Made by a program: the position numbers and the translations under genes. A stretch of 64,000 nucleotides of DNA from assembly GCA_000004985.1 (NCBI GenBank), contig GG738914.1, one strand, 5' to 3'. Under the pieces are notes generated by a model. It had not been told where the DNA came from, did no database searches, and saw only the letters and a program-made list of their open reading frames with translations. The stretch comes from Naegleria gruberi. Taxonomy: Eukaryota. Positions 1,577-55,326 of this stretch are shown piece by piece; position 1 is the first letter of the stretch; each line of letters opens with the position of its first letter.

Positions 1577-1684
1577 GAACTACCACTTGTTTTGGAGAAG
1601 ACAGTACCAGCTCTACCTCTTGTGGTGCTTTTGGAAAATGTGTAGGGAATGATACTTGCTCATGTGACCCCAACGTAGCAATAG
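1577..1684 (+). CDS. upstream exon of the EGF-repeat surface-protein gene (more 5' exons are likely further upstream)
   Basis: This 108-nt open exon (TTCFGEDSTSSTSCGAFGKCVGNDTCSCDPNVAIG) is flanked by AG at 1575-1576 and a GTTAGT donor at 1685. It splices in frame into the 1734 exon across the 49-nt intron 1685..1733. Confidence 0.35.
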
Positions 1685-1733
1685 GTTAGTAGTGCTTGTC
1701 AAACTTTTGCTTATGGTAATCACTTTTATTAAG

Positions 1734-4700: not shown

Positions 4701-5308
4701 CCTACACAGACACTTACTACAGTGGTCCAAATTTGGCTAAATTAGTTAAAGTTGACATGACAAAATTTTCATCTCCAATTTATTTCCAAGTGAAATTTAC
4801 TTACAAAACTTTGGAGATGAATGTTAGACAATATTTAATTATTGGAACAGTTCCAAGAGAAAGGGTGGATATTAATGTGAAAGTTGTTCCATTCGTTCAA
4901 AATCCAGAGTTCAGCAATTACATTTTTCAAGTTTCGAATGATGTAGCAAATTCATTCTATGAAGTAACTGTTTCTCTTTCTCTGAGATATAAGAATGACA
5001 CTAGCATGTCCTACTCATTTGGTTCTCTGTCCATGTTTAGTTTAAATAGAGAGGTAAAAATTGCCTTTCCACCTCTCTTGGATTCGTTTACAATCTATAA
5101 GAAAGTAACCTATTATACGGATTCCTGGGTTGGGTACGAACATGAAGAATCACTTTATATCTACGAAGAAGAAGTTGCCTCATTCCCTGCCTCTCCACAC
5201 AGTTCTGATCCATTCATTAAGGCGATGCAATCAAAAATTAAGATTGCATTCGAAAAGGGATCGAATTATCTTTCTTCAGCTTCATCCATTATGAATTCAT
5301 ACTATTAA
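1734..5308 (+). CDS. large secreted or surface protein: N-terminal tenascin-type EGF repeats followed by about 750 aa of beta-rich Ser/Thr/Asn-rich domain
   Basis: There are about 13 tandem copies of the Cx3-5GxCx4-6CxCxxGYxGxxC module (for example CSGRGQCIDQDYCLCQSDDYGGVDC). The track ORF 1754..5308 begins at a TTG, and the reading frame is open back to the 3' splice site at 1733. Confidence 0.7.
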
Positions 5309-24560: not shown

Positions 24561-27500
24561 TTAGACGGTCATCAGTTCTACATCTTGTGGTTTTGATTTT
24601 TCAAATGTTCGTTTCTTCCTTCTTAAACATCTGACAATTAAAATTGAAATAATAACAATCATGATTCCACAACAGCAGACAACTAATAATCCAAATAATC
24701 CAAACAGACCATACAATGCCAGATTTGAACTCGTTCTTGGTGAAATACTTGTTTCATGTTCTAGTTGTGTTATGGTTGAGTTGGAAATTGTCTTTTCAAC
24801 AACTATGAGTGAAGTGACAGATTTCGAACAATTACAGTAAATTACTGGTGCTGATATTGTCGTGGAACAAGTGTGATTGGACGTAAGAGAGATGATATTG
24901 TCAATTAGAACACATTCAATAGTTGAAAAGACACTTGTTCTTTGTTCAATATTGTCGCTTGTACTTTCAAAAGTATTTTTCACATTGATATTTGAAAAGT
25001 TATACTCATTTCCAAGATTGAATGAGAATGTAATATCTGCAGTAAACTTCTTTTCAACAGAAACAATCTTACTGAGTGACTTGAAAGTTGTTTTAGTCTC
25101 AATTTCTTCCAAATCTGAAATTTTGATTGTTTGAACATTTGATACTTGTTTCAAAGAATAATAAACTCCCAAATGGTCAGTAACTGAGAAGAATGATGCT
25201 TCCAAAACAAGTCTATTAGAAACACTTGTATCAATAGCATCAAATACAAGTGAGCTATTTCCACCATCAGATGTCATTAATTTCTTCACTTGTTGATTCT
25301 TATAACTCAACAGAGAAACAGTTGAATAATGAGAAAGGTTTACACTATAATCTTTCTGACCTACGTAATAACTTCTCATCAACACATTGCTGAATATCTT
25401 AATTGAATCTAACACTCTATACGTGTCTTGCAGTTTACTGTCACCAGTTAATCTAATAATATTGTTAAATAAGCTGCTACATAACTTTTCTACACCCTCA
25501 GCAACTCTGAATTTCGTGTTTTTGGCAGCCATTACCATCAATTTTTCAGTCAAGTTGAATAACTTTTCGAATGGAAGTGAATTAATTGAATCACAATTTG
25601 AAGCCAAAGATTCCAACCCAAAAGAATAAACTCTAAAGTGAATGTCTGAAATCAATTCTAGAGGATTTCTCTGATTTAATCCAAGTATCATACTGTCAAG
25701 CATTTCATCTCTCAATTCATAAGCAATACCCGCTTCGTTTTCAGCCAATTTTCTTGATGTTATCAAATTGGAAATCATTAACTCTGATGTTCTTGAAATA
25801 GTTGCAGAATTGAAAACCAACTTGGCACTATCACTTGGCAGAAGAGATGCAGCCTTTAATTGCCAAACTTTCACTTTGTTTTTGATTTGTAACATTGAAG
25901 AGGCAGTGGGTGTTTTAACTTCCACTGATTTGATAAACTCAACTGATGCACCAGTATCCAAATCAACAATATCCACAAATGTATCCATAACATTTGAACT
26001 AAATGGAGAAGGAAGATAGGAAGCAAACTTCTCACCCAAATTGTAAAGTGGAATTTTAGTTCCTGACTTGTCATCAATGAACCCAAATACAAAATCAATT
26101 GATTGTTCAGCATTTTGGCATCCAGGACATGAGAACGAGAATTCAGTTTCCAATGCATAACCATATGATGGATTAATATAACACAAACATGATTTTGGTG
26201 ATTTGACAATTTTGAATTTGTACGAGAATCTTGATGAAAGATTATTTCTCCTGTCTGAAACTTGGAATTCAATTTCATACTCTCCATCTTCCAGTAACTC
26301 AAGAAGCGACAGAATTAATGATGAAGATTTAGATGGTTGAGTAGACATTTTAGAGATCATTGAATTAGTCAATGAATTACCATTAATTGACCACTCTCTG
26401 ATCATATCCTCTTCATCAGTTTGTTTTTCATCTCCTCCCAAAATAACTGATAATTGTAAACTCAATACTTCATCTTTGAGAACTTTGAATCTGTTTGGAT
26501 AAACAGAAATTAAACTTATCACTGGTGGAATTAACAATTCAGTGTTTGGATAATCAATGTCAAGAGATTTAGAAATGGAACGTAGTCCTTTCTGAATGCT
26601 CAATGTCAGAGAAACTTTTGAAAGACTTCCTTTAGGAATTTGACATGTCGATGATTTGGTAATGGCATAATGTGTTAAAATATTGGAAATTGTTGAATCT
26701 TGACATGCTTGATTTGAAACTCTATCAAAACATGACCAATTCCATGAATCTGAAACTGAATCTATATTATCAGGATCTGAATTCTCAACTATCACATCAG
26801 CTTGATTGGTATTCAAACTAGAAACATAAATATTTAGTAATAAATCTCTTGATTTGCTTGAAAGTGGAATTAAAAGTGTTGCGTTCGAATTTGGATTGAA
26901 TTTTGAAATTGCTTTTACACCAAATGAATAAGATTCATCCCCATTTGATAATATTTCTGTAATAACCAAATCATTATTTGAATCTATTTGATAATTAATA
27001 GTGGATGGACCTGAGAGTTTCTCCCAAATATAGTCAAATTCCCTGTTATCAAAATAACATGAAGGTAATTCAATAGATTTCTTAACAATTATTGGGAGCG
27101 AACCCTTTTCAATATTGGTGAGTGACATTTTGTTTGTAAGCAATGAAAGAGTAGGATTTGGAACAATTGATTTGATAATTTCAATAAATTTCTTTTCACT
27201 CCTTGCGCCACTGAGAGAACTTTCAGCAATCAAGCCAAAGACATAGCTTCCTGAAATCGAAATACTATTTGAGGTCAAAGTTGAATTGAAATCACCAAAA
27301 GAAACCTGTTGCAAGTTGAAATTTGAATCAGGAGATGATTCAATAGACCAAATAAATTTCACAGGTTTCAAATCACCACAATATGATCCAGAAGCATCAA
27401 TTGCAATTTGTTCACATGGACTAATTGTATTCTTAAATGAAATATTGATTATTGGTTTCACAGGGTTGTTGGAGGGAAGCAGTAACAGTGAGATATATCT

Positions 27501-30500
27501 TGGAATTGGGGTGTAAATAATGTCCAAACCATTAATAATTAAAGAAATATTAGAATATGGAATTATAGAATATTGACCTCCAAGTTCAATAAAGAAATTT
27601 CCGTCTTTCCAATAACAAGATGGATTTTTACCCAATTGAGAAAAACTTTTCTCATTCACTACCTTGCTACACTCTAAAACTCCATTGGATATGACAATAG
27701 AAGTGTTAAAATGAAATTCCAAAGTATTCCCCAAAGAGTTGAATTTTGGTTGAGATGAAACAGATAAAAAACATCTACTTCCAAAATAACCAGACTCACA
27801 TTGACAATAATCTTCACTCAAACAAGAGCCATGTCCGGAACAAACGATAGCATTGGATTGCAATATGCCAAAACAAGAAACTTTCTTATTTTCACAACTT
27901 ACCCCTTCATAAAGAGAATTACACTGACACGAATCATTTGAAAAACAATTTCCATGTCCACTACAAACTCTGGAATCATTTGCTTCATGCCCAAAACAAA
28001 AACTGATTGGTGGAGATGTGGAAATAGTACTAGTTGAGTTAGTTGTACTAGTAGTGCTATTATTTACATTACTACTCGTGGAATTATTAATTGTACTGTT
28101 GACCGAACTAGTCGAGTTTTTGTTTAAAGTTGAATTGTTAGAAATTGTACTATTGAAAACTGTTGAATTAGCAATAGTGTTATTATTATTGTAAACAGTT
28201 GAATTAGTTGACATTGTATTGTTAAGATTTGTACCATTAACATTTGAATTTGTGACATTATTAATAGTGTTATTCCAAACAGTAGTTGAATTACTTGCAT
28301 CCACAGTAGTATTAGAAATGCTTGTTGAATTATTATCAATGCCTGTTGTGGCATTATTATATGAATTATTAAAATTAGTTGTATTTGTAAATGTAGAATT
28401 GTCAACCGATCTATTGTTACTAACTGTTCCATTGCTACTACCAATAGTATTATTACAATAAACACCAATGGTACAATTGGAAGTTGAATTAAATGCTGTG
28501 TTATTGCTTAAATTGGTAAAGTTAGAAGAATTGTCAACATTTGTGGTATTACTTAATATGGAACTATTTTGGTTTGTTGAATTATTCAAATCTAGTGATG
28601 AATTATTGAAAATTGTTAAATTGCTATTGGTAGAATTATCAAAACTGGTGTAATTATTGGCTGATGAATTATTAGAAATTGATGTATCGTTACCAAAATT
28701 TGAAACATTCAAATTTTGATTATTACCTGCTGTTTCATTACAATTCACACCAAAGTAATTTTGATTGCAATCACATAAATCCTTGCCAACACATGTTCCA
28801 TTTCCATTACAAACATTAGCGTCAGTAGAAGGGAAATCAAAACAGCTAATCACACTGCAATCTTCACCATAGTGATTATCTTTACATTTACAACTATTAA
28901 AATCAACACATTCTCCGTGTCCATTACAAACATTAGACTGATTTGACATTATTCCAAAACAAGTAGTAAGAGAGCAATCTTCAGCATAATAATTATCATA
29001 ACATTCACAAAAATCATTCAATGTACAATCACCTCTACCAGAGCATGAAGCATCATTATTGTAAAAAATACCAAAACATGTAAAATTTTGTAAACAATAC
29101 CCATATCTGTCTCTTTCACACACAACATTGTAAATATAAATACCATTAGAATTTGAAAAAAGTATATCTTCATCCTTAGTAAAACTGGAAGTTCCAATAG
29201 AAAAGGATTTTAAATTTGAATTTGTAAAATACTTGTCCTCGCTTGGCGAATACCAAAAATATGGTACAACCTCACCGTAATAACTCCCACCAACAAAGTC
29301 TGAAAGATGAGAGTTTGATGAAGTAGTAAAAGCAGTTTCACTGTCAACAGTTCCATTTCCAATGACGTCAATAACAAAGCCATCTGCACGAACTGCCTTC
29401 TTAATTAAATTTCGGTTAGACAGTTTTACAAAGTAAATATCTCCATTTGAATCAATTGTCCAACCATTAGTACTGATAGGATGATTTTCTATTGGAATTT
29501 TCTTTGCCTTACCTGCAATTAGAGTTGTGTTTGTTTTGTAAACTCCTTGATTACTTGATATTATTAACGTTCCATTTCGTAAGGTTATTGATAATGGCTT
29601 AAACGGCATTTCATAGATTGGTTTGAATATATTTGAAGAACTGACTTGTAAAATACCATATGCTGTACTAACACCTCCCTTTCTTTCAAAGGCTACTAAT
29701 ATTTCATTATTTTCAGTGCATAAAATAGCTTGCACCAAGAATGTATATGTAAAGGTCCCAGGAGGGGGTATTAATGATAAACTTATGCTAGTTGTTAGCC
29801 TGGTGACTAGATTATATTTTGTAAGTCTGTAGGAATCCTTAACTGAATATGCTATTGTGGTGTCATCACTCATCATACATAGATACATGGTTCCACTCTC
29901 TGTCAATACTTTCAAGTTACTATCTGTTTGTGGGTCGTAATCAAATATGGAATAACCACTAGAGTAATAAATATGACCAGTGGATTTTCTGAAAGTGATA
30001 TCATCTATAGTGTTTGTTGTATTTAAAACTTTTCTAACAAATGTTGAATTAACATATTCAAGTAAATAGTTTTTGTAAACAAAAAAAAGGTTGTTTGAGA
30101 TTGGATGAAATCCCATAGGTTGATCTTCTAATCCAGTGACAATATCGTCTGCAGGCGCAGGAAAATCAGTAAAATCAGGGCTATCTTCTTTTTTTCCAAC
30201 GAGTGGTCTAACCTTGTTTTGATTGTCAATATAAGAAATCAAATATTTGGTTCTTAATATCAAATTTCCATTTTTAGGATTTGATGTGATTTGATGTAAT
30301 GAGTCGAATTCAACATTCATTGCATCTGAATTCAAACCAGAAAGACTCATTCCTTGACTATACCCAACACCCAGGACACATTTAATTGTCAGATCAGATA
30401 AACTAACTTGTATAATTCTAAACTTATTGTCACTGTAATAGATAGAGTTGTTCAAATACTGAATATACATTAAATTGATAATAGAGATATCCAATGAAGA

Positions 30501-31973
30501 TTGCCCATCATATTGATAGCCATTTGTTCCTGAAATATTGCCCGCAATTAGTTTTAAAGATTTTGTGTAAATATTAAACTTGTTAATAAAGCAATTAGCA
30601 TTACCATTAGCGTCTGCTACAGAATTAACAATATATAAATCCTCCCATGTTTTTTTATCAGTAACTACTTCAGAAATTGGCATTTCAAAAGTTATTAAGG
30701 GATTCAAAAGTCCAGTCCTTTCAGACAATCTGAATATTGATTTTTTATCAGTTGAAAATAGGATAATGTCTCCATTTCTATATGTTTTGATTGGTTTCAG
30801 TCCTAATACAAACTGAAAACCGTATGAGTAAGTCGAATACGAAAAATCAATTGCTAATTTTCCAACAATAGTTTTGATTTTTGAATCCTGATTGGCCTTT
30901 ACAATATTCCCACTGAATGAAATGTAATAAGTAAAGTAATTCTCCTTTGGAACGATTTTCATTCCCTTAATAGAAGGTAATGAAACATTTTGCAAAGTTT
31001 GGTCAGTTCTTGTAAAATCGAGAGACTCTCCAACTCCAAACAATAACACAATTCTTCCATCTTTTGAAATCTTTCTAATAATGGTATCATCACTGAAATA
31101 AATTTCACTATCAATAACAGCCATCAACTTGGGAGAATTAAGACATGCGTTTGTGGCAAACCCGTCATAAGTTACGTTAAACGTGCAACTGTCTTTCAAA
31201 CCAGATACCTTGTAAAATCTACCATTCTCAATCTTCATAATTACATATATATTATTAATAGAAATAGTAAAATAAACGGTACCATTGCTTGCAAGAATGG
31301 AAGTTGGTGTCTTAATGTCGGTTGAACTCGCAATGGATCCATCAACAGGTATGGTCGTTGATACAGCATTAGATCCTGCAATTGTAACAATACTTCCTGT
31401 TGTATTCAGCTTTCTAATCTTGTTGACTTCAATAGTGTACACGTTACCCATTTCATCGTAGGTAAAGCTAACTACTGAGAATTGAAAAGAAGCAACTGTT
31501 CTCACTCTATTATCAACCTTGGAAATTACTCTCAATTTAAACGAGGAATCAACATAGGTACATTCTCCTGTTAAGGATGTTGTAAGATACTTGACCGTGG
31601 CCGAAACTTGTGTAGTATCAACTCCATCACTTGATGATGTTCCCTTACCCAAGTAAATACTCACAGTCTTATTTGCCTCGAAATATCTTCTTAAAATTGT
31701 TCCATCACGGAAAACAACGTCTCCACCCTCCATAATACATATTTCGGTGGGTGTTATTGATACCAAGTTATAAGGAAGTGGTGAGGCTGTTTTAAAATCA
31801 ACAGGATTTACAATTGCTTTCTTCGTAGACAAGTAATTCGGAATAGCCTCAACCATACAAGTCTGAAGAAGAAGAATACAACAACAACACAAACTTGCAG
31901 CCACCGCAACAAGAAGCGCCTTAAAAAACAATGGTGATGGCGCACAAAGGGAAGGAGCCTTAATCATCATCAT
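24561..31973 (-). CDS. giant type-I surface protein (2470 aa): signal peptide, beta-rich N-terminal region, tenascin-type EGF repeats, an Asn/Ser/Thr-rich sequon tract, a second EGF cluster, a long beta-rich stalk, and a C-terminal TM with a short basic tail
   Basis: The ORF begins MMMIKAPSLC with a hydrophobic leader. Two EGF clusters share the Cx3GxCx5CxCxxxYxGxxC module. The C-terminus reads LFGLLVVCCCGIMIVIISILIVRCLRRKKR. Confidence 0.75.
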   Translation of the reverse strand: MMMIKAPSLCAPSPLFFKALLVAVAASLCCCCILLLQTCMVEAIPNYLSTKKAIVNPVDFKTASPLPYNLVSITPTEICIMEGGDVVFRDGTILRRYFEANKTVSIYLGKGTSSSDGVDTTQVSATVKYLTTSLTGECTYVDSSFKLRVISKVDNRVRTVASFQFSVVSFTYDEMGNVYTIEVNKIRKLNTTGSIVTIAGSNAVSTTIPVDGSIASSTDIKTPTSILASNGTVYFTISINNIYVIMKIENGRFYKVSGLKDSCTFNVTYDGFATNACLNSPKLMAVIDSEIYFSDDTIIRKISKDGRIVLLFGVGESLDFTRTDQTLQNVSLPSIKGMKIVPKENYFTYYISFSGNIVKANQDSKIKTIVGKLAIDFSYSTYSYGFQFVLGLKPIKTYRNGDIILFSTDKKSIFRLSERTGLLNPLITFEMPISEVVTDKKTWEDLYIVNSVADANGNANCFINKFNIYTKSLKLIAGNISGTNGYQYDGQSSLDISIINLMYIQYLNNSIYYSDNKFRIIQVSLSDLTIKCVLGVGYSQGMSLSGLNSDAMNVEFDSLHQITSNPKNGNLILRTKYLISYIDNQNKVRPLVGKKEDSPDFTDFPAPADDIVTGLEDQPMGFHPISNNLFFVYKNYLLEYVNSTFVRKVLNTTNTIDDITFRKSTGHIYYSSGYSIFDYDPQTDSNLKVLTESGTMYLCMMSDDTTIAYSVKDSYRLTKYNLVTRLTTSISLSLIPPPGTFTYTFLVQAILCTENNEILVAFERKGGVSTAYGILQVSSSNIFKPIYEMPFKPLSITLRNGTLIISSNQGVYKTNTTLIAGKAKKIPIENHPISTNGWTIDSNGDIYFVKLSNRNLIKKAVRADGFVIDVIGNGTVDSETAFTTSSNSHLSDFVGGSYYGEVVPYFWYSPSEDKYFTNSNLKSFSIGTSSFTKDEDILFSNSNGIYIYNVVCERDRYGYCLQNFTCFGIFYNNDASCSGRGDCTLNDFCECYDNYYAEDCSLTTCFGIMSNQSNVCNGHGECVDFNSCKCKDNHYGEDCSVISCFDFPSTDANVCNGNGTCVGKDLCDCNQNYFGVNCNETAGNNQNLNVSNFGNDTSISNNSSANNYTSFDNSTNSNLTIFNNSSLDLNNSTNQNSSILSNTTNVDNSSNFTNLSNNTAFNSTSNCTIGVYCNNTIGSSNGTVSNNRSVDNSTFTNTTNFNNSYNNATTGIDNNSTSISNTTVDASNSTTVWNNTINNVTNSNVNGTNLNNTMSTNSTVYNNNNTIANSTVFNSTISNNSTLNKNSTSSVNSTINNSTSSNVNNSTTSTTNSTSTISTSPPISFCFGHEANDSRVCSGHGNCFSNDSCQCNSLYEGVSCENKKVSCFGILQSNAIVCSGHGSCLSEDYCQCESGYFGSRCFLSVSSQPKFNSLGNTLEFHFNTSIVISNGVLECSKVVNEKSFSQLGKNPSCYWKDGNFFIELGGQYSIIPYSNISLIINGLDIIYTPIPRYISLLLLPSNNPVKPIINISFKNTISPCEQIAIDASGSYCGDLKPVKFIWSIESSPDSNFNLQQVSFGDFNSTLTSNSISISGSYVFGLIAESSLSGARSEKKFIEIIKSIVPNPTLSLLTNKMSLTNIEKGSLPIIVKKSIELPSCYFDNREFDYIWEKLSGPSTINYQIDSNNDLVITEILSNGDESYSFGVKAISKFNPNSNATLLIPLSSKSRDLLLNIYVSSLNTNQADVIVENSDPDNIDSVSDSWNWSCFDRVSNQACQDSTISNILTHYAITKSSTCQIPKGSLSKVSLTLSIQKGLRSISKSLDIDYPNTELLIPPVISLISVYPNRFKVLKDEVLSLQLSVILGGDEKQTDEEDMIREWSINGNSLTNSMISKMSTQPSKSSSLILSLLELLEDGEYEIEFQVSDRRNNLSSRFSYKFKIVKSPKSCLCYINPSYGYALETEFSFSCPGCQNAEQSIDFVFGFIDDKSGTKIPLYNLGEKFASYLPSPFSSNVMDTFVDIVDLDTGASVEFIKSVEVKTPTASSMLQIKNKVKVWQLKAASLLPSDSAKLVFNSATISRTSELMISNLITSRKLAENEAGIAYELRDEMLDSMILGLNQRNPLELISDIHFRVYSFGLESLASNCDSINSLPFEKLFNLTEKLMVMAAKNTKFRVAEGVEKLCSSLFNNIIRLTGDSKLQDTYRVLDSIKIFSNVLMRSYYVGQKDYSVNLSHYSTVSLLSYKNQQVKKLMTSDGGNSSLVFDAIDTSVSNRLVLEASFFSVTDHLGVYYSLKQVSNVQTIKISDLEEIETKTTFKSLSKIVSVEKKFTADITFSFNLGNEYNFSNINVKNTFESTSDNIEQRTSVFSTIECVLIDNIISLTSNHTCSTTISAPVIYCNCSKSVTSLIVVEKTISNSTITQLEHETSISPRTSSNLALYGLFGLFGLLVVCCCGIMIVIISILIVRCLRRKKRTFEKSKPQDVELMTV
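27990..28720 (-). repeat. low-complexity Asn/Ser/Thr-rich coding tract (dense N-x-S/T sequons) within the 2470-aa gene
   Basis: The translation here is dominated by NxS/NxT tripeptides (NSTNSNLTIFNNSSLDLNNSTNQNSS...). This tract also generates spurious ORFs on both strands in the track. Confidence 0.6.
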
Positions 31974-41702: not shown

Positions 41703-44700
41703 TTACAATTCATCTTCTTCAATTTCGATTTCTTCTGTAACAAGGGCAATATCCTTAGGTTTTGGTTCTCGTTTTTGGTAGTGATCATAGGAGGTGGCAG
41801 CACTGTAAGATCTTGGGCTGTCAATGGAAGATTCTTCATCAGTCATTGTGGAATCATTTCTGTTTCTTCCTCCTCTTGGTGACATAGCAATTCTTGAACT
41901 GAGTCTTGACAATGTATTATTGTAAATTTCCACATCCAAATTGTGAGATAATTCCATTTCCTTATCTTGTTTTTCTAGTTTGTCTGTGATCTTGGAAGCT
42001 TTGGAAGTGGTAAACTTTCTTTTAACTTTACCACCTTTTTGTTTAGCCAATCTAATCTTCTTTTTGATACGTCTCAAGTTTACCAATCCTTCCATAATAT
42101 CTCTAATATTCTTACTATTATCCTCATCACTAGAATCAGAATCAGATTCAAAGAGAGTCAAATTAAATTCTACCTTTCTCTTTGAAGTGTTCATTCTAGC
42201 ATAAGCGTCAACATCATCTGGAATAAAGAGTGGATTCTCTTCAACTACCCAATCATCATGGAATTCTTCATAACTATCACATAATGGATTCTCAATAATA
42301 TTCCACTTTTCTTGTGCTTCCTCATCTTCCAATAGTACAACCTTAGTCATTTGAGTTAACGGATTACCAAATAGTTTGGAATATAATGCTTGGAGTGACT
42401 TGGCCTTTTCTTTACCGTACTTTCGTTCCAATTCTCTTCTGGCCAATCTTTCCTTCTTTCTGTCCTTCTTTCTTCTGACATAGATATCATAAATAAGCAT
42501 TCCCAAAACAAGCACTATAGATACTACAATAACAATGGAGGCAATCCATTCACAAAAACCACGCAGGGTTTCATTTCCTTTCCAAGCACCATCATCAACC
42601 AAGAAAAGTAAACCAAAGAACAAAACCAATTCAGTACACACTAGAGAAACCCATTCGAGGAGATTGTGGAATTTGGTCTTGAATGGCACAAACTGTGATT
42701 GCAACAGGAAAGCAATGAATACAGTAATCAGAGCAAAGGTAACAGTTTGAAGAGGAAGTAAGAAGGTGTTGAAGATGGAGAGAAGCAACTTTCTGAAGGT
42801 AATAATAATTTCCCAATAGAAGAGTCTCTTCTTGAATCTGTTTTGGATAAATTTGAATCTCAAATCGAAATCTTTAACTTTCTGTAACAAGACAGGATTC
42901 TTTGGCTTCCATTTGAGTTCGTCCAATTCAGTCTTTGTCAAATCTGGGTTGTGTATCAACAAATCCTTTCTAACTTCCAACTTCAAATGTTTCTTATAAA
43001 TATAGAGCGAGAGGAAGAACAAGATTGAACCGAGACCAAACACGACAAAGTAAATAATAGCTAGAGGTAACATGGCAATCCACTGAGGATCCAAAATACT
43101 GATATCTGGACTCGATACAAGTGCACAAGTATTGTCAGGTTGAGGTGTACAATAGAAAATGTCACTGGCTTGTGAAATGATAAAAGCAAAGGTAAAACTG
43201 AGGAACGCAGTGTAGCCATTGATCAATTGATTGAAGAATACTTTCATTTGTTTGGCGCTCATCTTTTCCTTAAGAAGCCAAACTAAGAAGTTTCGTAACC
43301 AAACAAACAAATTGATAAACCAAATCTTCCAATCATTGAGATTTTCAATGATCCTTCTCTTCAATCTTTGTTTCTTGTTGAGCTTCTTTTCTTCTTCCTT
43401 CTTTTTCAAGTATTCCACTTCATCAATATCGTTGTGATATCTGTACGGTTCACGATATTCAAATTTCACGTGATGTCCAAACTTGCTAACAATAACATTT
43501 CTCAAAATTCCCAAAATATACAACAGCACAAACAGTACAAATACATAAACTGGGAAGAGTGAGGTCAGATACCATTTGGTTAGTTGGTTAATGTCTGGGA
43601 AAATACACTTTGGATTGATAAAGTCAGTATTGAAAAGTGTTGCAGAACTGGCCGTATAGGAATATTCCATTACAACAGGCCACTTGACGTTATATTTGGT
43701 GAACATGGCAACAACTTGGAAGAATGACAGTGCAATAGAAATAGAAGCCAAATGTGAAAGTTTGATACTACTGATCAATAAGAAAATTAAAACTACAACC
43801 AACATGAGTATACCAAATCCAATCAATCTCCAGATAGCATCGTCTCCACATTTAGTACAGAAACCATTGAATTTGTAATAACCAACATCACAAGCTCCAC
43901 ATTTTCCTGATATATATCCAACTGTACAATTTTCAATTGAAAAACCACCACAAGCTTCAATAGGAAGACAACTGTAAACAGTGTAATTGTCATGTTTTCC
44001 CATCCAGTAACCTTTCTTTGGATATGGATGTATGTTGTTTCCAGCGTTACAAATCATAGATTGCTCATTACATTTTACGCAATAGTCATCCAACTTCTTT
44101 GGGCTGGGATTGAGATAATAATTATTTTGACAAATACATTCAGTGAGTGAGGTAGAGGCCTTTTGAAGTGTTAAAGTGTTTACCGGACAAGAAATACATT
44201 CCTTGGCTTGGAAAGATGATGAATAAGTATTAAAATCACATGGAATACAAGCATTACTGTCATTGATTGGTTTGTAGAAACCTGGCTTACATTCTTGACA
44301 TACATCTCTGTAAGAGGAAGCTCCGTAACCAGCCATACATGGAACGTATTCAAACATTGATTTGGCATCACTGGAAAGTTGTAGAGCATTGGTGTTTGAT
44401 GAGCCATTCTTAAATGCAGCATATGTGAATCCTTCTCCATTCAAAGAATACCACTCTCTTCTATTCACAGATAAGGAAATACTTGTCAAACCTTTCTCTC
44501 TCTTTGGAGCTATACACATGATAATATTTTCACTCATCACAGTACAAACATCTGTTGAAATAACAGTTCCAAACATTGCCCTAATCTCTACAGTTGCCAA
44601 TTTTGAAATATTAACTACTTGTGTAATACCCTCAACTTGGAGAGTAACTGGAATGTCATCATAGGTCCAAGTCTTCTTTGGATTGACGTTTAAAACTTTC

Positions 44701-47700
44701 AATCTATCATAAATGTATAAATTATATGAATTACTATACTCTGATCGAGAATTATATAATTGCACATAGAAGGAAGTATCTGCAGAGGTTATAATCTGAG
44801 AAGGAATTTCACAATTGATCTCAGAGGAAACTGAAGTTAATACTTTGGCTACTCTAACAATTTGGTTACTAATACTAAATTGACAACCAACAGCAGCGCC
44901 AAGATTCTCACCTACAATTGTTACACTTGTTGGTATGTTTCTTTCAAGGAGGTATGGTTGAACATTGATAATACGTGGCTCGTCATATTTGCTCTTAATC
45001 AAGATTGGCAAGGAGAATGTATCAATTCCATTGAATGTAACAGTAAATGTTGTTGCAAATGGGAATTCTAATATGGAATAATCAGGAAGTGTATTATTCA
45101 ATGGTGGATAGAGAATGAAAAGTGAAGAGTCCACACATGTGAAAATATCACTTGTTGACAATCCAGAACCTTGATAGAAATTAATAATATTCTGCAAAGA
45201 AAGAGTCAGGGATGAGAATGATGAGCTTGTGGCAATTGTGAATTGCAAATTATTGGTATTGCCACAAGGCAATGCTTGACTAAAGTGTAACATTAAACTG
45301 TTTGGTACAATTGTAAGGATTTGATTCGTCTGAACAAAATCAGGTGTAATATTATCAATACTTGTCAGTTGTCCACCTGAACTGTAAGTTAAAGAGTTTA
45401 CAGTATTGAAGGATGAACCAGAATCAAATGACAATAATAAATCGTAGGAACCAGAAGGTGCATTTCCAGGATTACTCAATTCTACATAGGTTGAGGTAAC
45501 AGAGACCGGTGAGAGTCCTATTTCTTGACCTAAAATAGCTCTTCTTGTAGATTTGAGTTGAAGTTTACCTTGAATCTGTGAGATTACCAATACACTTGAA
45601 AAACTTCCATAAACTTTGATAGTAGGTGTTGATGAAAATACTAAGCTTGGAGAAATGCTGCTGAATGTTGGCATTGGAATTACATTGACAGTTAATGAAC
45701 CTGCTTGGATTGGCTTTTGTTGAGAATAAACAACCACAGAATAAGTTCCTGTTGTAGATGGAGCACTATCAAGACAAAAATCAAGACCACTAATAGAGCA
45801 TGAAGTTAGCCAAGTATCTTGTTTGTTGATTCTCAAGGATACTTGTAAAGGTAGCAATGGAGAATCAACTGAAACACCACTGATTGATACCTTAATTGCT
45901 GATCCAGAAATTGCCTGAGTTGGAGAGATGCTTATTGATGCCAAAACAGCAAAATCTAAATGCAAATTGAAATCTCCAAACGAGTAACCATTATCTAAAG
46001 ATAATTGGAAAGGTATTCTCTTTGGTAGTTGTCCTCCAAATAAGTAAGTGAGTGGAACAGTTGTGAATGTAATCTGATTAGTATTTTGGTTGTAGGTACC
46101 ATCAAGAACTTTGCTATTGATATTATCATTGAGCTTGATCTTTGGTTGTGTATTTCTTGGTAAACCAAGGACATTGATACTGACCAAAGTGGCAGAATAA
46201 ACATCAACTGTTGCAGGAGAGGCAGAACCAATAGATCCAGACCATGAATAAATTTCAACAGTTTGACTGAGAGTAATGTACGAGCTGAAATCATCAAAAC
46301 TAAAATCAACAAATAAGAATCCAGGATTGCTTGACAAGATTGTTGGCAAAGGACAATCAACTTGTGTGGCTGACTTTTTAACACAACCATTTGTTCCTTC
46401 ACTCACCACTAATTGGCTGACTGAACTTCTGTACTTGACAGCAAATGTAACGAGTCTACTGTCAAGAGTAGAAGCAAATGCTATGGACAAAGTACCAGAG
46501 TTTGATGTCTTGCTGGCATCAATAATACTTGGAGAAATACTGGAAACAGCTGAAGGTTTGATTGCTGTGAATAGCGAGATCAGTGTCATACTTGGGAAAC
46601 CATCAATGTAGAGAACGACATAGTACTGCTTGGATGTGCTACTCACTTGTGATTGAACATTTGGTGTAAGGCAGTTCAAGAATTTACCTGAGCTTGTGAG
46701 CAATTGGCAATTTTGGAGTGGTGTCATTATCTTCTTATTGTCAATGAATAATAATGTGAATGAGTATTGACTCATCCAATTACTATTTCCACCATGATTT
46801 ATGGATTTAATGGTGTCAAACATATTTGAATAGGTGAGTGTAACATTTTGTCCTCCATACACTGTGCCGTAAGGTAAACTCAATGGGAATCCAACATCCA
46901 AAACTAATATTTTCTTAATATCAGTAATAAAATTACTGGTTCCATCTATTACTAATTGTACAGAGCTAAATCCCGACTTGGTAGTTTTAGCAAGTTTGCA
47001 TTTAACAACAGTGGATGATATAATGATAGCACTAGTTTGATATGATGTACCGTCATTATCATTTTTAACATAGCAATTGAATGAATATGTAGTATTGAGT
47101 GAATATTTTGACAAGTAAATTGTAATGTAACTATAATCTCTAATACTAATGTCTGAAGTGGTCAGTACAAATGGACTGATCTTTTGAACTGTCAATAAAT
47201 CATAAACTACCAAGGAGTAGGTTTCTACTTGGGTGTTAGATTGAGAAATTTCCTTGTTAGCCACATTCATATAGAAGGAAGTAACAAATGGAACAGATTT
47301 CTTTGGTATGTAATTGGTTGGTGGCGAAAGATTATCAACTGGGCCAACATAAGGTGCCACAAAGTATGGTGCTGAGCTTTGGTCAATTCCAGATAAGATG
47401 GAAACGGATTCATCCTTCATCTGAACTGATATTTGCAAATTCTGTGGACTGAAATCGTAAGGAATAACAAATGTTCCATTGTTGAATACCGAAGCAGCGA
47501 CCATATCCATATTATTTCTGTTTGCAATTGGAGTAGGAACTGGCAACACTGGAATCTTCTTGGCATTTGTTAAGTATTGATAGTTTGAACTTTGATCTGG
47601 AATTCCAAGACGAAGTTCTAACATTTTGTTAACCTTACTAACAGCAGTATCTGTGGAAAAGACACAACTCAAAATATCACTTCCAACAATCTTTGTTACG

Positions 47701-50700
47701 AAAGTGCTAGCCACTACAGATCCATCAAGAGTCAACACGCATTTAACAATGCCTGTTTCCACTACGTCAATGGTGGAAACTGAAACTTGGAAGTCTGGAA
47801 TTGTGTTTACAAGTTGATCATTAATTGTCCACAAGTATGGATTAGTAAAGGATATTGTTTTGACAGTTTCAAAGTAAAGAGCAAATTGGTTACTTGTAAT
47901 CTTGAAAGGAACAGATACAGCTCTGGTAATAGCATAAATATCAAAGAATGTCTTTCTACTACCAGTCAATGAAGGACATGTAACCACATTACCAACCACA
48001 AAGGCATCAACTGCAGTTAGAGCAGATGCTGAACTAATAGCACATTTGTAAACAATATTTTCCATAGAGCCGAACGAATTCAAAGATACCTGAACAGTTT
48101 GAGGAGTATTGAGAGTAAATTGTGGAGTGACTGTGGCAACGCTATAGGTATTTTCGAAATATAAAGTAACTGGAGAGGAGGTAATTGAAGTTTCAGAACC
48201 ATTAGCATAATAGAACAAATCAGCAGATACAGAACCAACCTGTGAATAAGTAATAGAGCAAGTAATTTGATCAACAGTGCTAGATAAAGCTGTAACTGTA
48301 GCTTTGTAAAGTGTAGTTGAAATTTTACAATAAAGATTATTCTTCACAATTGCAGATGGTACAACCAAAGATCCATAATTTAACACAAATGAAACAGATG
48401 AAACAGAATTAACCAGTAAAATATCGGATTGACCACTGGCAATACTGAATGGTATTTTTTTCAATACTTGGAAATTTCCCTTGTTGGCTGTAATATCCAG
48501 AGTGAATGGGAAATTATTTGCTAACAAGTATTTAGTTGACACAGAAACTCTATAGTTACCAGAGTTAGAAAATGTAAATGATGAAGACGAAGAGGTGACG
48601 CCTTGAACTAGATTGTATGGAATATTATTTTCCAATTTCAAATTAAACTCATTATCAAATACAGTGGTAAGATTTGAGTTTGGTCCAAGTGTTAATGAAG
48701 AGGAAAATAATGTAATTACTGATGAAGCAACGCCAACAGTATCGATTACAAACGGTGGATTGACTTGTATAATGTCCACTGGTGAGTAGGGAACAATAGG
48801 AAGGGACAATACCTTTGGTACGGTTTTGATTTCCAAGTTATACTGATAGTACGGCTTGATAATACTGCTAGATCTTAAATCTGGTATTATGCATGAATAG
48901 GTTTGGAATGCAATGAGAGAACAAGTGAAAGCTCTTGTTGGTTCATCAACAAAGCTAACTGAAACGCTAGATTGATCTATGAAGTCAGAGTAGAGTGTAG
49001 CAGTTGTTCCACCAGAATACAGAGCAGTTGTTGGACTCAAGAATGATCCACCAATGACGTTAATAGTAGCATAGGTATTGGTAATGGAAAAATATGGTTT
49101 TCCCTGAAGACTCAAACCAATAGAAAGTTGATATATTCCTGAGTAGTGTTCTATTTCTGTGCAATTGAATACACCTTCGTTGATGATTTTTGCAGGGAAT
49201 ACTCTATTCAAACTTTGGTCTGATACTGAATTCCACACACAACCAAAAGAAGCTTCTCCAAAGTTAGATGATGTATTGAATGCTGTTGTGATAACAATTG
49301 AGAATTGTTTGGATGTTTGAACGCTATACATGGAAACAGATTGTATGTTAACTGTTGGAACTACTGTTAACTCTTGGTCGGTATTCGCAGATAGTACGGA
49401 TTGGAATGTTTTGGAAATTGCTTGTACATTCTCAAAGTAATTGATACTCAAAGTAAGTTTACCATAAATGTTTGAATTTGGAATAAAGGCACAATTAATA
49501 GAAGTCTTTTGAGCTACGGTTATTGTTCCCAAAACATATCCATTTGCATTAGATAGCATACAATAAACTAAATTGTTTGCAATAAGACTGTATGGAATTG
49601 TTTGATTAAAACTGACAGGTACAGAAAAGGAACCACTAACTGCAAACAGATTTGATCCTCCAGTAACTGAAACATTACCCTTTTGTAAATAGTAAACCTC
49701 AGAACTGAGTTTGGTTACCTGCAAAGGAGCTGAGTCGAGTAACAAGTTAGTTACATTGAAGAATGATGCAAATTGGACAACTCCAGCATTAACCTTGGAG
49801 GAAATCATTGGATCCAAATCACACAACAAAAAGTCAGGAGTACTGATAGTTTGACCTTTTGTGAATGGAGCATTTGACAGGGTCATATTTACATCTTTAG
49901 ATGTTAAACACTTCCAATCAATACCTAACAATGAGTCATAGCTATTATGGAATGACAAATAAACTTGTGGACTATTTGACACAGTATCTGATGTAATAAC
50001 TTTTGGATAAACATTGTCAACATTCACAGTTTGATAAGCAACAATCTTGAAACTCAGTGTTGTGAGAGGTTCCTTATAGTTAACACCAGCAATTGTGAAT
50101 GAGGAATAAAGGGTTGCTGTTATGGTCTGAATAGTTTTGGAGAATGAAATAGTTCCAGTAGTGATGGTACAGACAATACGATAGGTGGTCTTTGCAATAT
50201 TGCAACCAATCTCACGATTAGTTCCCTCAAAATTCAAACGTAAGCTGTATGTAAGGAAAGAAGTTTCGGATGGTAATGACATAAAGCTATCCTTGGAAAT
50301 AATCTTGAAAGAAATGGTAGGTAATTGAGTCGATTCAATATAATTTGGAGTTGGTTTGATTGTATCAAAAGGTAGTTTGAGTGGAGTTTTAGAAATATCC
50401 AATTGGAACGTTTTGGATGTTGTGGTATCCTTTGTCATTTCTAAAGTTATATTCCTTTCTGATGGACTGTTGATTCCTGTGAAGAGTGTGGATCTTGAAG
50501 ATATTTCACATCTAACCATATCATCTGAGAGAATTGTAGAATCGTAAAGAGTACTGCCAATTCTGCACTTGTACTGGATATTGGTTCTTCTTGTAGCATC
50601 AAAAGTCACTCCCAAAAATACGTATTTGAGATCAGTTGTGTCAGTTGCATAATCCAAGATAGAAGGGAAAGACTCTGCGATACTCAAATATTTGGTTACA

Positions 50701-53700
50701 AAATAGAATGATGTAGAAACAGCAATAATATCAGTTTGCATAGACCCATACGTGATGGAAATACTTGGTGAAATCAGCATTGGTGAATATTTGCCTTGTG
50801 CGTATGGTATTGAAGGATTGTACTGAATTGTCATTTGGCAATTAGAGTCAATTACTATTGGGAAAGTTGAAACTAGAATTTTGTCTTCATAATTTTTGAG
50901 TGTTGCACTTTGAATAGCCAAACAATTGAATTTGGCCTTATTTAGCTTGAAATTGTTAATTGTAAACGATTGGGTACTTTGCACAAAGAGCGCACCACTG
51001 GAATCCAAAGTGTCAATAGTAATGGAGTCACTGGCTATTGGCAATAAATAAGATGAAGTAATAGGTATTCTAGAAATTCCATTAAATACATAAATTCCAA
51101 AATCAGCATAGAAAATTCCATTTTCCAAAACTGGATTATTCAATGTAATATCAATGCTACACACAAAAGTTGATAAAGCAGGAGAATATGTAGCAGTAAA
51201 GAATTGTCCATTCAAGAGGCAGTAATAATTCCAAGTTGCTTCTAAAGTATTATTCTTTGTTGTTTGTACGGATAGTTGCCCACTAACACGACCTGCAATT
51301 GACTGAAGAATATTAGGTGAAGTGGTAATTATACTTTCCTTTACACCATGATAGTAAACAACATTATAAATTGGAATTGACTTGGTCATAACACTTTCCT
51401 TCACTCTAATAACAACTGAGTTTTGTCTTGGAGATGTTACTGGAGGGAATGAAACAGTACAATTGAGAGAATTACCATTAAACGAAGCACTTGAAATACT
51501 TCCATCTACGGAAACACAAGAGTACGAATATTGGGCACCAGAGAATTTGAATTTGAGATAAATTGACAATGTAGAAGAGCCAACATCATTAGTAACAAAA
51601 AATGGTGAACCAATAACATTAGTTGAACTAATCATATCAAAACCAAGTGACTTTCCAACACGGTAGGTTCCTATGTTTTGTCTGGATGCTGTTCTTCCCT
51701 TATATTTGAGCTCCAATACGTAGGAACCAGCATCTGTTGCATTGATATTGCCACACGTTACCAGAGAGCTGGTTTGAGAAACAGCTTGAATACTCTGTAC
51801 ATTAGCACTGAATTGATTGAGAGTACCATCAGAGGTAGCCAAACATTGAAAATTAGATACATTAGAAGGCAACACATTTTGAATAAGCAAGCTGAATATC
51901 AACCCACTAGATGATCCAGTATTTTCAATAGTGAAACTAGGATACTGATATGAAATAGTTGCATCGCTGTTAAGAACAATGAAATCCAAAGAATAATCCA
52001 ATATTTTGGCCTTAATTATTCCAAAACTATTTGATAGCAATCCTGCAGGAATTGGAGCCACTACCCTAGTTGGATATCCTGGATAGGCAGTGTAATATGA
52101 GAGTGCTGTCCATGAAGAGCCTAAAAGCAAGTAGACTTGGCTTCTCAAAGAAAAAGGCAAGTCATACTTGATTTCTACTGAATCAGAGTCACTAGAAGGC
52201 ATTATATTGCTATCAGATCTGAGTTTCAAATCACCCACATAGGTATTAGTGAAATTGAACAGTGAAAAAGTTGCTGATTGTCTATCTTTGTAAGCCAATG
52301 TGAGATTTCCATTGTTGCTAATATTCATAGCTGTTGAATTGAATGAGAAAGTACAATTAAAAGTGATATCAAATACATTTTCATCAGTATCAGAAGTTAC
52401 TCGAGAGGCATAAAGGAATACTCCCTTAAATGATACTGAAGATGAACTGGTTCTGTAAATACAATGTAAAGCATTTTGGTAAGTGGTAATACTAACTGAA
52501 GTAGCATCGAATTTTGATCTAACAGTAAACTGAAGAGTGGAATTATTTGGATCTATGATAGCATACAAGTTATCTGGAAACTTTGAAGTCACCTGAGAGG
52601 GTGATGGAACTCCAAGTTCACAATTTCTTCCAGTTCTCAAATTTAAACAAGCACAATCGTTGGTTACAGGTGTACCAGAAATGAAACACGAACAATATCC
52701 GAAATCACCACAAATACCTCTTCCTGAACATGCATTTTCGTCTTTCTCAAGCAGTCCATAACAAATTTTCTGGTCACAGAATTGGCCACCGAAAAAAGTG
52801 TTTGTACAGACGCACACATCTTTTGCAACACAATTACCTCTAAGATTGCAAACAGTTCCATCAATGGAGAGAATACCATTACAAGTAGTGAATTTACACG
52901 CATTATCGGCAGGGTCATTATAAAAATTAGGGTTACAAACACAAAGATTGTCACCAGGGAGCTTTTCTGTTCCAGGAACAACAGTACAGTTACCATTAAC
53001 ACATCCATTAATCATACCATGACAATAAACATCTTGGCAATAATTACCACCAAACTTGTAACCATACTGGCATGTGCACTTCTCTGGTTCATTACAGCTA
53101 CCTCTTCCATTACACACTAAAGGATCATCAAATGGCAATCCACCACACATTCTTTTACAAGTAGATCCTCCATATCCAGTATCACAAAATTCACAATTAG
53201 TGCCATAAGAATGAGGAGTAGTACAGGAGCAAGTATCAAACGAAACACATGAGCCTCTCCCTGAGCAAACACTAGAATTCTTACCAGATACGCCAAAGCA
53301 AAAGGTACTTGGTGTAGCTAGTATTCCAATTTCGTTATCAGTTAACACTCTGTCGAAAATAACAAATTCGTCGATTGCTCCAGTCACCTTATCGAGGAAG
53401 AATGTTACATTTCCTGATCCTGGAGATCTCAAATTTCCAATAGTGAGAGTACCATTTGGTGGAATTTTTTGGCCCTTCTTGTAATCCAGTTTGAAATCCT
53501 TCAATGTTCCATCAATATAGAGTTTGAGAAGTCCACTATCAGAACTCCAAGATACTGCAACATGACGCCAAGTTTTACTATTGATGTTTACAGTTGTATC
53601 CCATGAATTAGAGGCAGTAAACAAATATCTCAATACGTGTGGTTCATTAATAGAAACTTTCAAGCTTCGATAGTCAGTAAGAACGAATCCAAAATATGTA

Positions 53701-54717
53701 TTATTTACTTGATACGCGAATGGTGCACCTTGCTCCAAATGATTACCCTATATTATTAAATATAAACAATAAAAGAATTATTGTAAAACATACCTCTGAT
53801 TCAGAAAGCAACCAAAATGCAACAGTGACTTTAGTGGAAGGAAATGGAAAATTGAGTACATCAGCTCTGGAACTCGATTCTGGTCCAAATTCAAGAGCTT
53901 TTCCAGATGCACCTGTGATATAATTCACAGAACCAACAGTATTCACTGCATTACCTCCACACATATCTGAAAATTGATTATTAGCAATATCTGTACTAAT
54001 ATAAAATTTACATCCTCCATACTGTGTTGGTGTTGGATAGGCAATCTCTACATTTTTCAAATGTTGAATAGTATTATTACAAAAAGGTCCATAATATGGT
54101 GAAAAACAAGAACATCCCTCGTTCAATGATAAACATACTCCATTTCCACTACACTCATCGGTTCCACTGCATGTAGCAGTATAAAGCAATAGAACATTCT
54201 TTGGTGTTTGAGATAGAGTTGAATTGATTGTTTGATAATGTAAAGTTGAATTATAACCAAGAGCAAGATAGGATTTATCTCCAGTTTGCTGTCTCAATAA
54301 GTTATATTCCAAACTTCCAACAGGAGGTAACTTGATTGAATTACTGTATCCAATAAATGTATCATAATCTCCACCATTATTACATTTGCTATTATAAATG
54401 GATGAAATTCTGGAAGCTCCAGCAAAATCTACAGAATTTGCCTTTGCAACCTTCTGACAACCATCTGGAGTGGTGTAAAAGTAATCAGCCAAAACCAAGC
54501 CAGAACTAATAAAACTGAAATTCTTTGCATTGACAAACACATCTCTAGCTGACAAGTAACCAGCTGTACTAGCTGTTTGATAATTAGATGATCTAAACAG
54601 TTCACTCGTTGAAATAAAATTGAATGGCTCACTAATGGCCTTTAAATTAGCATCTGTATAGTATGAACCATTGTACGAGCCAAGATAAGGACTCTGATCA
54701 TAGAAACTCAATCTCAA
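41703..54717 (-). CDS. giant receptor-like protein (more than 4300 aa; at least 2 exons; intron 53748..53793): LamG/ConA-like domain, EGF-like Cys modules, a Ser/Thr-rich beta-rich region of about 3000 aa, furin/VSP-like CxxC repeats, a polytopic module of about 10 TM segments, and a charged cytoplasmic tail
   Basis: The 4011-aa track ORF begins at a TTG. A 46-nt GTATGT...ATATAG intron joins it in frame to the 324-aa upstream ORF (...WLLSESE + GNHLEQGAPFAY...). The LamG-like motifs (TWRHVAVSWSSDSGLLKLYIDG...IDEFVIFDRVL) lie just downstream of the junction. The C-terminus has about 10 hydrophobic helices after the CxxCxxGYY repeats. Confidence 0.75.
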
Positions 54718-54918
54718 ACGAAAGTAAGGTCTCGTTCCAACTGTTCCACAATTAATATCGGACGATGGATAGGAAGGAGGAACTACGAGAGTGGGATTGC
54801 TGAGTGAAAGAACATTCTTCTCATATCGATCTGATGATGAAAATCATAATAAATTAAATATATTAAATTATAATCATAATTAATATTAAATATGTAAAGT
54901 ATTGTTGTTATATGTTAA

Positions 54919-55326
54919 TTAATGTAAATAATAAAACATACATTTAGTGAGAGCTTCCATACATGTTTCTGGAATCTTATCCTTCAATATATATTGAGCA
55001 TTTACCATTAAAAAGAAGGAAGAAGAAGAATCCGACAATGATAAAACTGATGATGATGAATCTGTTGTTATTGCTGCTTGGAAGAGAGCAATTACCAAAA
55101 CTAACAACATGATCATCAGAAAGGCTAAAATACATGAAGACGAGAAAGAATAGCGAATTTTACCAAGCCTCTTTTGATCATCATTACTTTCATAAACACA
55201 TGTTGTTGATGATAATTTTGATCCGATTATATTGTTATGTTGAAGATGATCATGACGATGAGAAGCCTTTTCATTCTTCTTCTTTTTTAATAATTGTTTG
55301 TCGCTTCTTCTAGCTGTAACGGTCAT
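54919..55326 (-). CDS. probable 5' exon, encoding a signal anchor, of the giant gene
   Basis: An ATG at 55326 starts MTVTARRSDKQ, which is followed by a hydrophobic segment (ILAFLMIMLLVLVIALFQAAI). A GTATGT donor follows ...MEALTK. The downstream ORF at 53743-54717 lacks an ATG, so it needs an upstream exon. Confidence 0.3.
   Translation of the reverse strand: MTVTARRSDKQLLKKKKNEKASHRHDHLQHNNIIGSKLSSTTCVYESNDDQKRLGKIRYSFSSSCILAFLMIMLLVLVIALFQAAITTDSSSSVLSLSDSSSSFFLMVNAQYILKDKIPETCMEALTKCMFYYLH

Follow-up and report, generated by a model that had tools for sequence, protein, structure and literature searches.

A giant Naegleria gruberi protein with an IPT/TIG-array ectodomain is a new member of the CRMP superfamily

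In the free-living heterolobosean Naegleria gruberi, a gene of more than 13 kb raises the question of what kind of giant protein it specifies, to which family that protein belongs and what it might do at the cell surface. The gene occupies 55326..41703 on the minus strand of a 64,000-nucleotide stretch of contig GG738914.1 (assembly GCA_000004985.1), which is called the window here. An earlier note on this DNA had described a huge ectodomain fused to a multi-pass C-terminus, had likened it to polycystin-1 or to adhesion receptors, and had thought it unusual for a protist. We found that the product belongs to the CRMP superfamily, as a new, so far uncharacterised member whose IPT/TIG ectodomain is unusually large, and that the known range of the CRMP core reaches Heterolobosea, beyond Alveolata and Amoebozoa. 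CRMPs (Cysteine Repeat Modular Proteins) comprise CRMP1-4 in Plasmodium, CRMPA and CRMPB in Toxoplasma and CRMP1/2 in Tetrahymena, with heterodimers of the CRMPA/CRMPB type. Those of Apicomplexa are defined by Ephrin-receptor-like/EGF modules and nine transmembrane (TM) helices (PMC9815656), and relatives are present in Tetrahymena (PMC9670195). Toxoplasma needs them to discharge its rhoptries and Tetrahymena its mucocysts, and a role as contact sensors, with an external N-terminus and an internal C-terminus, has been proposed for them (PMC9670195, PMC9815656). A Dictyostelium protein, Q86I19 (XP_643780.1), has been named as a CRMP homologue (PMC9815656).

The assignment rests on the C-terminal part of the protein, which is laid out as follows (aa, amino acid positions of the giant).

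43848..44339, minus strand: juxtamembrane Cys-rich region, aa 3611-3774, with 3 Ephrin_rec_like / TNFR-like repeats and a weak DUF7630 signal
42492..43838, minus strand: nine-helix membrane module, aa 3778-4226, from hydropathy, family alignment, AF2, positive-inside count and hhalign
Helices within the module: TM1 3778-3802; TM2 3805-3825; TM3 3872-3900; TM4 3972-4005; TM5 4028-4055; TM6 4119-4136; TM7 4139-4160; TM8 4166-4190; TM9 4200-4226
41706..42491, minus strand: cytoplasmic tail, aa 4227-4488 (262 aa), charged (many E, K, D and R residues), including an acidic Ser cluster

About ten helices had been predicted from the letters of the DNA. The multi-pass module held up and did not collapse to one or two helices, but the count came down to nine; ten hydrophobic segments are reached only if the N-terminal anchor is included. 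Hydropathy placed a group of hydrophobic helices at aa 3782-4226. The hydrophobic segments were kept across an alignment of 25 family members, and an AF2 monomer model computed with this 25-sequence alignment contained nine membrane-length helices (pLDDT 85.8, pTM 0.80), that of TM9 running on to aa 4251. Lysines and arginines numbered 18 in the loop between TM3 and TM4 and 17 in that between TM5 and TM6, as against 3 and 0 in the Cys-bearing loops TM2-3 and TM4-5, and TM9 was directly followed by RRKKDRKK. Because the loops after TM3 and TM5 and the stretch after TM9 are rich in K/R and the Cys-bearing loops are poor in them, the predicted topology is N-out, C-in, with the ectodomain outside and the tail in the cytoplasm, which is consistent with the positive-inside rule. 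Motifs that recur in the family include FSFFQ (TM2), W-P...NFN.DFL.PEC (first outer loop), C...P...C (second outer loop), RF.FL..RF....FYWE.VI..RKL (ahead of TM6 and extending into it) and Q...PY..K.HN..E (between TM7 and TM8). Neither a comparison of the TM profile with PDB sequence profiles nor a comparison with solved structures yielded a significant match or a fold like that of the nine-helix module, and no second copy of the module was found in the window.

Two details of this region deserve mention. In the second outer loop (aa 4007-4025, window ~43095-43151, minus strand), the Cys that 23 of the 25 members carry at alignment position 255 is replaced by Ile in both the giant and its Naegleria lovaniensis orthologue, and both gain a Cys at position 245; from the alignment, a disulfide partner seems to have been relocated. 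The C-terminal sequence, ...EEIEIEEDEL (window 41706-41720, minus strand), resembles KDEL/HDEL, with a run SDSDSSDED upstream in the tail. Since the predicted topology puts the C-terminus in the cytoplasm, an acidic cluster is more likely than a retrieval signal. The charged tail, already noticed earlier, matched no Pfam family, and its first ~150 aa are conserved in N. lovaniensis.

Profile comparisons tied this module to the CRMPs. TM-core sequences of TgCRMPA, TgCRMPB, PbCRMP1 and PbCRMP2 were taken from the supplement of PMC9815656. The 25-member family profile aligned by hhalign to a CRMPA-clade alignment (TgCRMPA, PbCRMP1, PbCRMP2) at 99.1%, E 1.4e-18; the 361 aligned columns begin at the juxtamembrane CxxC and extend through TM8, with the WYWE..RK and QPFD/K motifs lined up. 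Values were 98.4%, E 7e-15 against TgCRMPA alone, 94%, E 1.4e-7 against TgCRMPB, and 97.9%, E 3e-13 against Dictyostelium Q86I19, here over the TM4-TM8 region. Judged by these profiles, the membrane module is a CRMP core, that is, a homologous 9-TM unit. The CxxC repeats of the earlier note likewise proved real, as Ephrin_rec_like scored 39.3 bits in three stretches (Pfam on aa 3595-3785) directly preceding TM1. The giant thus shares with CRMPs the 9-TM core and Cys-rich Ephrin-receptor-like/EGF modules just before TM1, together with a large modular adhesive ectodomain, the predicted N-out/C-in topology and a cytoplasmic tail. In contrast, CRMP ectodomains are made of modules such as Kringle, MAR and C-lectin, where the giant has LamG, EGF and ~26 IPT/TIG domains. 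The Dictyostelium discoideum protein Q86I19 is also similar in coming from an amoeba, and its large ectodomain is likewise joined to a Cys-rich region, several TM helices and a tail, which forms a coiled coil in Q86I19 (S1 Data of PMC9815656), whereas its ectodomain carries PbH1 (parallel beta-helix) repeats instead of IPT/TIG.

We then asked how far the module is spread. An exhaustive HMMER search with aa 3771-4252 against 50%-identity cluster representatives retrieved 1104 of them with an E-value limit of 1e-3, of which 204 also passed a limit of 1e-10. A word-indexed search with the C-terminal 673 aa or with the family profile came back almost empty and missed even the query's own entry, the query being hydrophobic and rich in low complexity. 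Named members came from N. gruberi, N. lovaniensis, Acrasis kona and Anaeramoeba species, and many others lay on environmental eukaryotic contigs. The Anaeramoeba matches were weaker (E about 1e-14 to 1e-25), and the range of the CRMP core probably includes this genus. Among the best 150 relatives, 36 are at least 2000 aa long, and ectodomains vary, with Ephrin_rec_like, TIG, cadherin-like and Kelch modules. Because the family is this large and many of its members have giant ectodomains, a giant ectodomain on a polytopic module is common in protists; given a described CRMP family as well, the idea of an architecture unusual for a protist had to be given up. The TM modules of N. gruberi and N. 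lovaniensis share 76% identity over their full length; when the two proteins were compared in 200-residue windows, identity was 67-81% in the Cys-rich juxtamembrane region and TM module and 25-47% in the ectodomain. This pattern fits a variable recognition (ligand-binding) part set on a constant transducer.

Is the giant truly the product of one gene? The gene model is given below.

41703..55326, minus strand: whole gene, ATG to stop, 3 exons, 4488 aa, equal to XP_002670576.1 / NAEGRDRAFT_81819
54942..55326, minus strand: exon 1, aa 1-128, a basic N-terminus followed by a hydrophobic signal anchor/signal peptide
54831..54941, minus strand: intron 1, 111 nt, GT..AG; reading through it meets a stop codon
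53794..54830, minus strand: exon 2, aa 129-474, with the N-terminal domain, one EGF-like module and the first half of LamG
53748..53793, minus strand: intron 2, 46 nt, GT..AG, within the LamG domain
41703..53747, minus strand: exon 3, an uninterrupted open reading frame (ORF) of 12,045 nt, from LamG through the stop codon

In the list of ORFs, the gene appears as a 4011-codon ORF (41703..53738, minus strand) with two shorter ORFs in other frames 5' of it. Spliced from the ATG at 55326 to the stop, the three exons gave 4488 aa with no internal stop, and an exhaustive protein search showed this product to agree in every letter with the N. gruberi record XP_002670576.1 (P0007), which bears the name 'predicted protein'. 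The residues flanking the intron 1 junction are conserved in the N. lovaniensis orthologue, and across the intron 2 junction the spliced product aligns to that protein without a gap. A 5' exon had been placed earlier at 54919-55326: exon 1 is indeed there, its 3' boundary is at 54942 and not 54919, and the exon structure then drawn lacked the 46-nt intron found inside LamG. One might suspect that two neighbouring genes, one for the ectodomain and one for the TM region, were wrongly fused in the model. Since everything from LamG to the stop codon lies in one unbroken 12-kb ORF, and since the identical fusion recurs in N. lovaniensis (4303 aa, with the same domain layout) and in two relatives from metagenomes (3632 and 4315 aa), we consider such an artefact excluded for practical purposes, and the single gene that had been proposed stands.

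The annotated start of the giant adds a basic extension of 63 aa ahead of the hydrophobic segment (window 55069-55326, minus strand), and with an alternative start at Met70/Met72, within that segment, the protein would begin with a canonical cleavable signal peptide (MIMLLVLVIALFQA/A). The N. lovaniensis orthologue (XP_044550491, P0008) has at aa ~64-90 a 27-aa insertion, CMYFQILSISHNFLLFSVHLPISYLHT, exactly at the position of N. gruberi intron 1, which is probably an unspliced intron of that gene model. The same model stops ~110 aa short of the N. gruberi C-terminus.

The ectodomain consists of a distal head and a very long stalk.

55069..55137, minus strand: strongly hydrophobic anchor segment, ~aa 64-86 (hydropathy)
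Exon 2, minus strand: N-terminal domain, aa ~130-345, no Pfam family
Exon 2, minus strand: single EGF-like module, aa 349-381
53310..53928, minus strand: LamG / ConA-like lectin domain, aa ~430-620, spanning intron 2 (Pfam Laminin_G_3, E 7.5e-12)
52620..53300, minus strand: EGF array, aa 624-850, with 34 Cys and roughly 6 tenascin/teneurin-type modules
44370..52532, minus strand: array of IPT/TIG-type Ig-like domains, aa ~880-3600, with 21 Cys pairs at a period of ~100 aa

For the head, what had been read from the letters alone was largely borne out. The signal anchor corresponds to a hydrophobic segment at aa 64-82, the LamG/ConA-like domain is matched by Laminin_G_3 at the E-value given above, and the EGF-like modules reach 29.4 bits with EGF_2 in aa 600-880 (3 stretches, above the Pfam cut-off). 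The orthologue of N. lovaniensis matches Laminin_G_3 at E 3.6e-19 (profile positions 6-151), as well as EGF_2 and EGF_Teneurin. The ~260 residues past the anchor (aa 88-350) matched no Pfam family.

The stalk (aa 880-3600) contains 42 Cys, which form 21 pairs with partners 8-43 residues apart, recurring every ~100 residues; five double-length gaps break the series. It was this periodicity that revealed the repeats, as a BLASTP self-comparison of the ectodomain detected none, the units being only 10-21% identical. Stalk units reach the Pfam cut-off for TIG (PF01833) and have the E-set Ig-like fold of IPT/TIG domains, so that the suggestion to look for Ig-like folds here proved fruitful. The stalk is thus an IPT/TIG array with 19-21 recognisable units and room for ~26 domains, a figure that rests in part on spacing; the five Cys-less gaps look IPT-like by eye and gave no score in the repeat hidden Markov model (HMM). 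When iterated, this HMM recovered only its own training units and 11 units of the N. lovaniensis orthologue, and the repeat profile had no significant match among PDB sequence profiles. The ectodomain is 14.5% Ser and 9.9% Thr, in agreement with the Ser/Thr-rich character noted before. Because an Ig-like domain usually measures ~4 nm in length, ~26 of them in an extended stalk would span on the order of 100 nm. Units of the IPT/TIG fold also occur in the arrays of plexins, MET/RON and fibrocystin; unlike the giant, these receptors cross the membrane with one TM helix, contain far fewer IPT units and all lack a 9-TM module.

What could such a protein do? By homology with the CRMPs, we think it rather probable that this giant member of the superfamily acts as a contact or adhesion receptor of the plasma membrane. 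A distal head made of the N-terminal domain, one EGF, the lectin-like LamG domain and the EGF array would be carried on the long stalk of ~26 IPT/TIG Ig-like domains, which the three Cys-rich Ephrin-receptor-like repeats would seat on the conserved nine-helix module. The head may bind an external ligand, a prey surface or the substratum, and binding may be relayed via the 9-TM core to the cytoplasmic side, with its K/R-rich loops, its conserved F/YWE..RK and PF/Y..K.HN..E motifs and its charged tail. The relay might then trigger a local response, be it regulated exocytosis, adhesion or phagocytosis, as CRMPs do in rhoptry and mucocyst discharge. In this scheme we infer the location at the cell surface, the binding of a ligand and the signalling output.

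Several points weigh against this proposal. Identity to the CRMP cores is low, at 16% over the aligned columns, and DUF7630 (PF24633), found at E 1e-18 in the apicomplexan CRMPs checked (TgCRMPA, PbCRMP2), is weak in the giant (E 0.0043, 17.6 bits against a cut-off of 27). The splice model is based on genomic DNA and the N. lovaniensis orthologue, and surface location, glycosylation and signal-peptide cleavage are putative. No paper was found under the accession numbers of the gene, and in a literature search for CRMP together with Naegleria the CRMP terms were absent from the papers listed. Finally, no rhoptry- or mucocyst-like organelles are known in Naegleria, a free-living heterolobosean in this respect different from the hosts of the CRMPs named above, and the output may differ from that in alveolates.

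Competing explanations take the same parts differently. The ectodomain might merely stick to substratum or prey, as a passive adhesin or glycocalyx protein in the manner of Dictyostelium SadA, with the multi-pass region serving as an anchor or trafficking device. The host is an amoeba, adhesion-type modules (EGF, LamG, IPT) make up the fast-evolving ectodomain, and SadA itself is an EGF plus 9-TM protein needed for substrate adhesion and phagocytosis (PMC2173991). Compared by architecture only, SadA resembles the giant in its signal peptide, tenascin-type EGF ectodomain and nine predicted TM helices (PMC2173991), with only 952 aa against 4488. Yet, the TM module is the best conserved part of the giant (76% vs 25-47%), it is conserved over Discoba, Amoebozoa and Alveolata, with weaker E-values in Anaeramoeba, and invariant polar motifs lie at its cytoplasmic face, a constraint far beyond the needs of an anchor. 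Because the 9-TM core is so conserved, we regard a passive role as distinctly unlikely. Descent from polycystin-1 or from adhesion G-protein-coupled receptors (GPCRs) fares much worse. Polycystin-1 and PKDREJ are marked by REJ, GPS/GAIN and PLAT domains and by 11 TM helices ending in a PKD-channel domain, and adhesion GPCRs by a GAIN/GPS autoproteolysis domain followed by a 7TM (secretin-like) domain. In the whole giant or its segments, Pfam gave no match to REJ, GPS/GAIN, PLAT, PKD, PKD_channel or 7TM families, and the helices are nine rather than 11 or 7. Moreover, only ~170 Cys-rich residues separate the last IPT domain from TM1, which leaves no room for a GAIN domain. The resemblance comes down to a shared general plan, a giant adhesive ectodomain on a multi-pass C-terminus, which is useful as a working analogy only, since helix number differs and there is no fold similarity to the Naegleria module; PANTHER, for its part, labels TgCRMPa 'GPCR-like' (PMC9670195). 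Contradicted on every defining feature checked, such descent is highly improbable. The earlier interpretation is therefore partly supported: it had the order of the domains right, its 'adhesion-receptor logic' accords with how the homologous CRMPs are viewed in the literature (PMC9670195), and it was wrong on kinship and on rarity.

The nine-helix module might also do more than relay a signal. It could itself conduct cations (Ca2+), as a channel of the Pkd2/Flc type (PF06011) that is gated by stretch or by a tether. The ectodomain would act as tether or gating spring, contact or pulling would open the module, and Ca2+ entry would be the signal. PF06011 ('TRP') is matched by 11 of the 25 family TM modules (best E 4e-10), over profile positions ~150-419 of 426, that is, TM3-TM9, one of them reaching 36.3 bits against a cut-off of 28.5. 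P0162, a bridging protein of metagenomic origin, reaches 35.7 bits with PF06011 and matches the family profile at E 3e-13. Schizosaccharomyces pombe Pkd2 has the same overall plan, in which 9 TM helices link an Ig-like domain outside the cell to a disordered tail that includes a short coiled coil (10.1101/2022.08.11.503631), and it reportedly lets Ca2+ pass when the membrane is stretched (PMC9727806). On the other hand, the giant's own module has no PF06011 match at E up to 0.5 (the gathering cut-off of 28.5 bits is not reached), nor do TgCRMPA and PbCRMP2 at E up to 0.1. The link is transitive for this reason, and sequence comparison places the relationship at superfamily level, through the relatives. 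In addition, the TRP_N / ML-like domain (PF14558, PF02221) was not found in the giant, the channel activity of PF06011 proteins is still described as putative, and a pore cannot be judged from a monomer model. Members of PF06011 (fungal Flc1-3, S. pombe Pkd2, Trp663, Trp1322) resemble the giant in combining 9 TM helices with a domain outside the cell and a tail that is disordered or coiled; relatives of the giant's TM module match the family at or above the curated cut-off where the giant itself does not, and the giant's ectodomain is ~25 times larger. Despite the name 'TRP', the family does not have the canonical 6-TM TRP fold. Separately, the canonical TRP / polycystin-2 channel fold (6-TM, voltage-gated-like, with a pore loop) was considered for the module and rejected, solved TRP channels giving TM-scores of 0.10-0.16. 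Taking the evidence together, we view a channel function of the giant's module as doubtful, though not far-fetched.

A wider version of this idea, which we hold to be a little less likely again, is that the CRMP-type 9-TM core of the giant and, by extension, of apicomplexan CRMPs is the same ancient module as in the putative mechanosensitive, Ca2+-permeable Pkd2/Flc channels of fungi, and that these proteins are tether-gated channels. On contact with prey, host or substratum, the IPT stalk and lectin-like head would pull on, or gate, a 9-TM pore, and Ca2+ entry would then set off exocytosis or adhesion. Among top-ranked papers, the literature had no co-mention of CRMPs with PF06011, Pkd2 or Flc. 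If true, the idea would supply a concrete mechanism for CRMP-triggered rhoptry discharge and would define a pan-eukaryotic family of contact-sensing channels in Discoba, Amoebozoa, Alveolata, Fungi and possibly Anaeramoeba, for which there is no solved structure. Ion flux is a testable hypothesis for CRMP signalling.

The window, which is DNA of N. gruberi NEG-M with a GC content of ~34%, holds other genes too. Actin and a histone deacetylase are among five neighbouring ORFs that agree exactly with N. gruberi RefSeq proteins encoded on a 233-kb scaffold. The gene for XP_002670574 (2470 aa; 24561-31973, minus strand), 10 kb from the CRMP-like giant, encodes tenascin-type EGF repeats and a REJ domain (PF02010, E 4e-17), a module of polycystin-1 and of the sea-urchin REJ protein. 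This product has an N-terminal anchor and a single C-terminal TM helix, with a C..C..CxC motif ~40 residues ahead of that helix which is GPS-like by eye. A long ORF at 1754-5308 (plus strand) carries an array of tenascin/teneurin-type EGF modules (EGF_2 E 1e-21, EGF_Teneurin E 2e-20) and lacks hydrophobic segments; it probably belongs to a further large protein that is secreted or displayed at the surface. Two adjacent leucine-rich repeat genes, 20255-21478 and 21879-23033 (both plus strand), seem to be tandem paralogues; the former, which alone showed an F-box, matches a RefSeq protein exactly, and the latter ORF as read had no exact match in the protein collection searched.

Collectively, these findings allow the name 'predicted protein' to give way to a family assignment. 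CRMPs are essential invasion factors of Toxoplasma and Plasmodium, and the same 9-TM core here lies under a very different giant ectodomain in a free-living heterolobosean, which points to an old and widespread design of a variable ectodomain on a constant 9-TM transducer. The main interest is that the family extends beyond alveolates and may be linked to the fungal Pkd2/Flc channels. Naegleria fowleri, a pathogenic relative, attacks host cells via contact-dependent feeding, and for Naegleria the giant represents a candidate family of contact or adhesion receptors.

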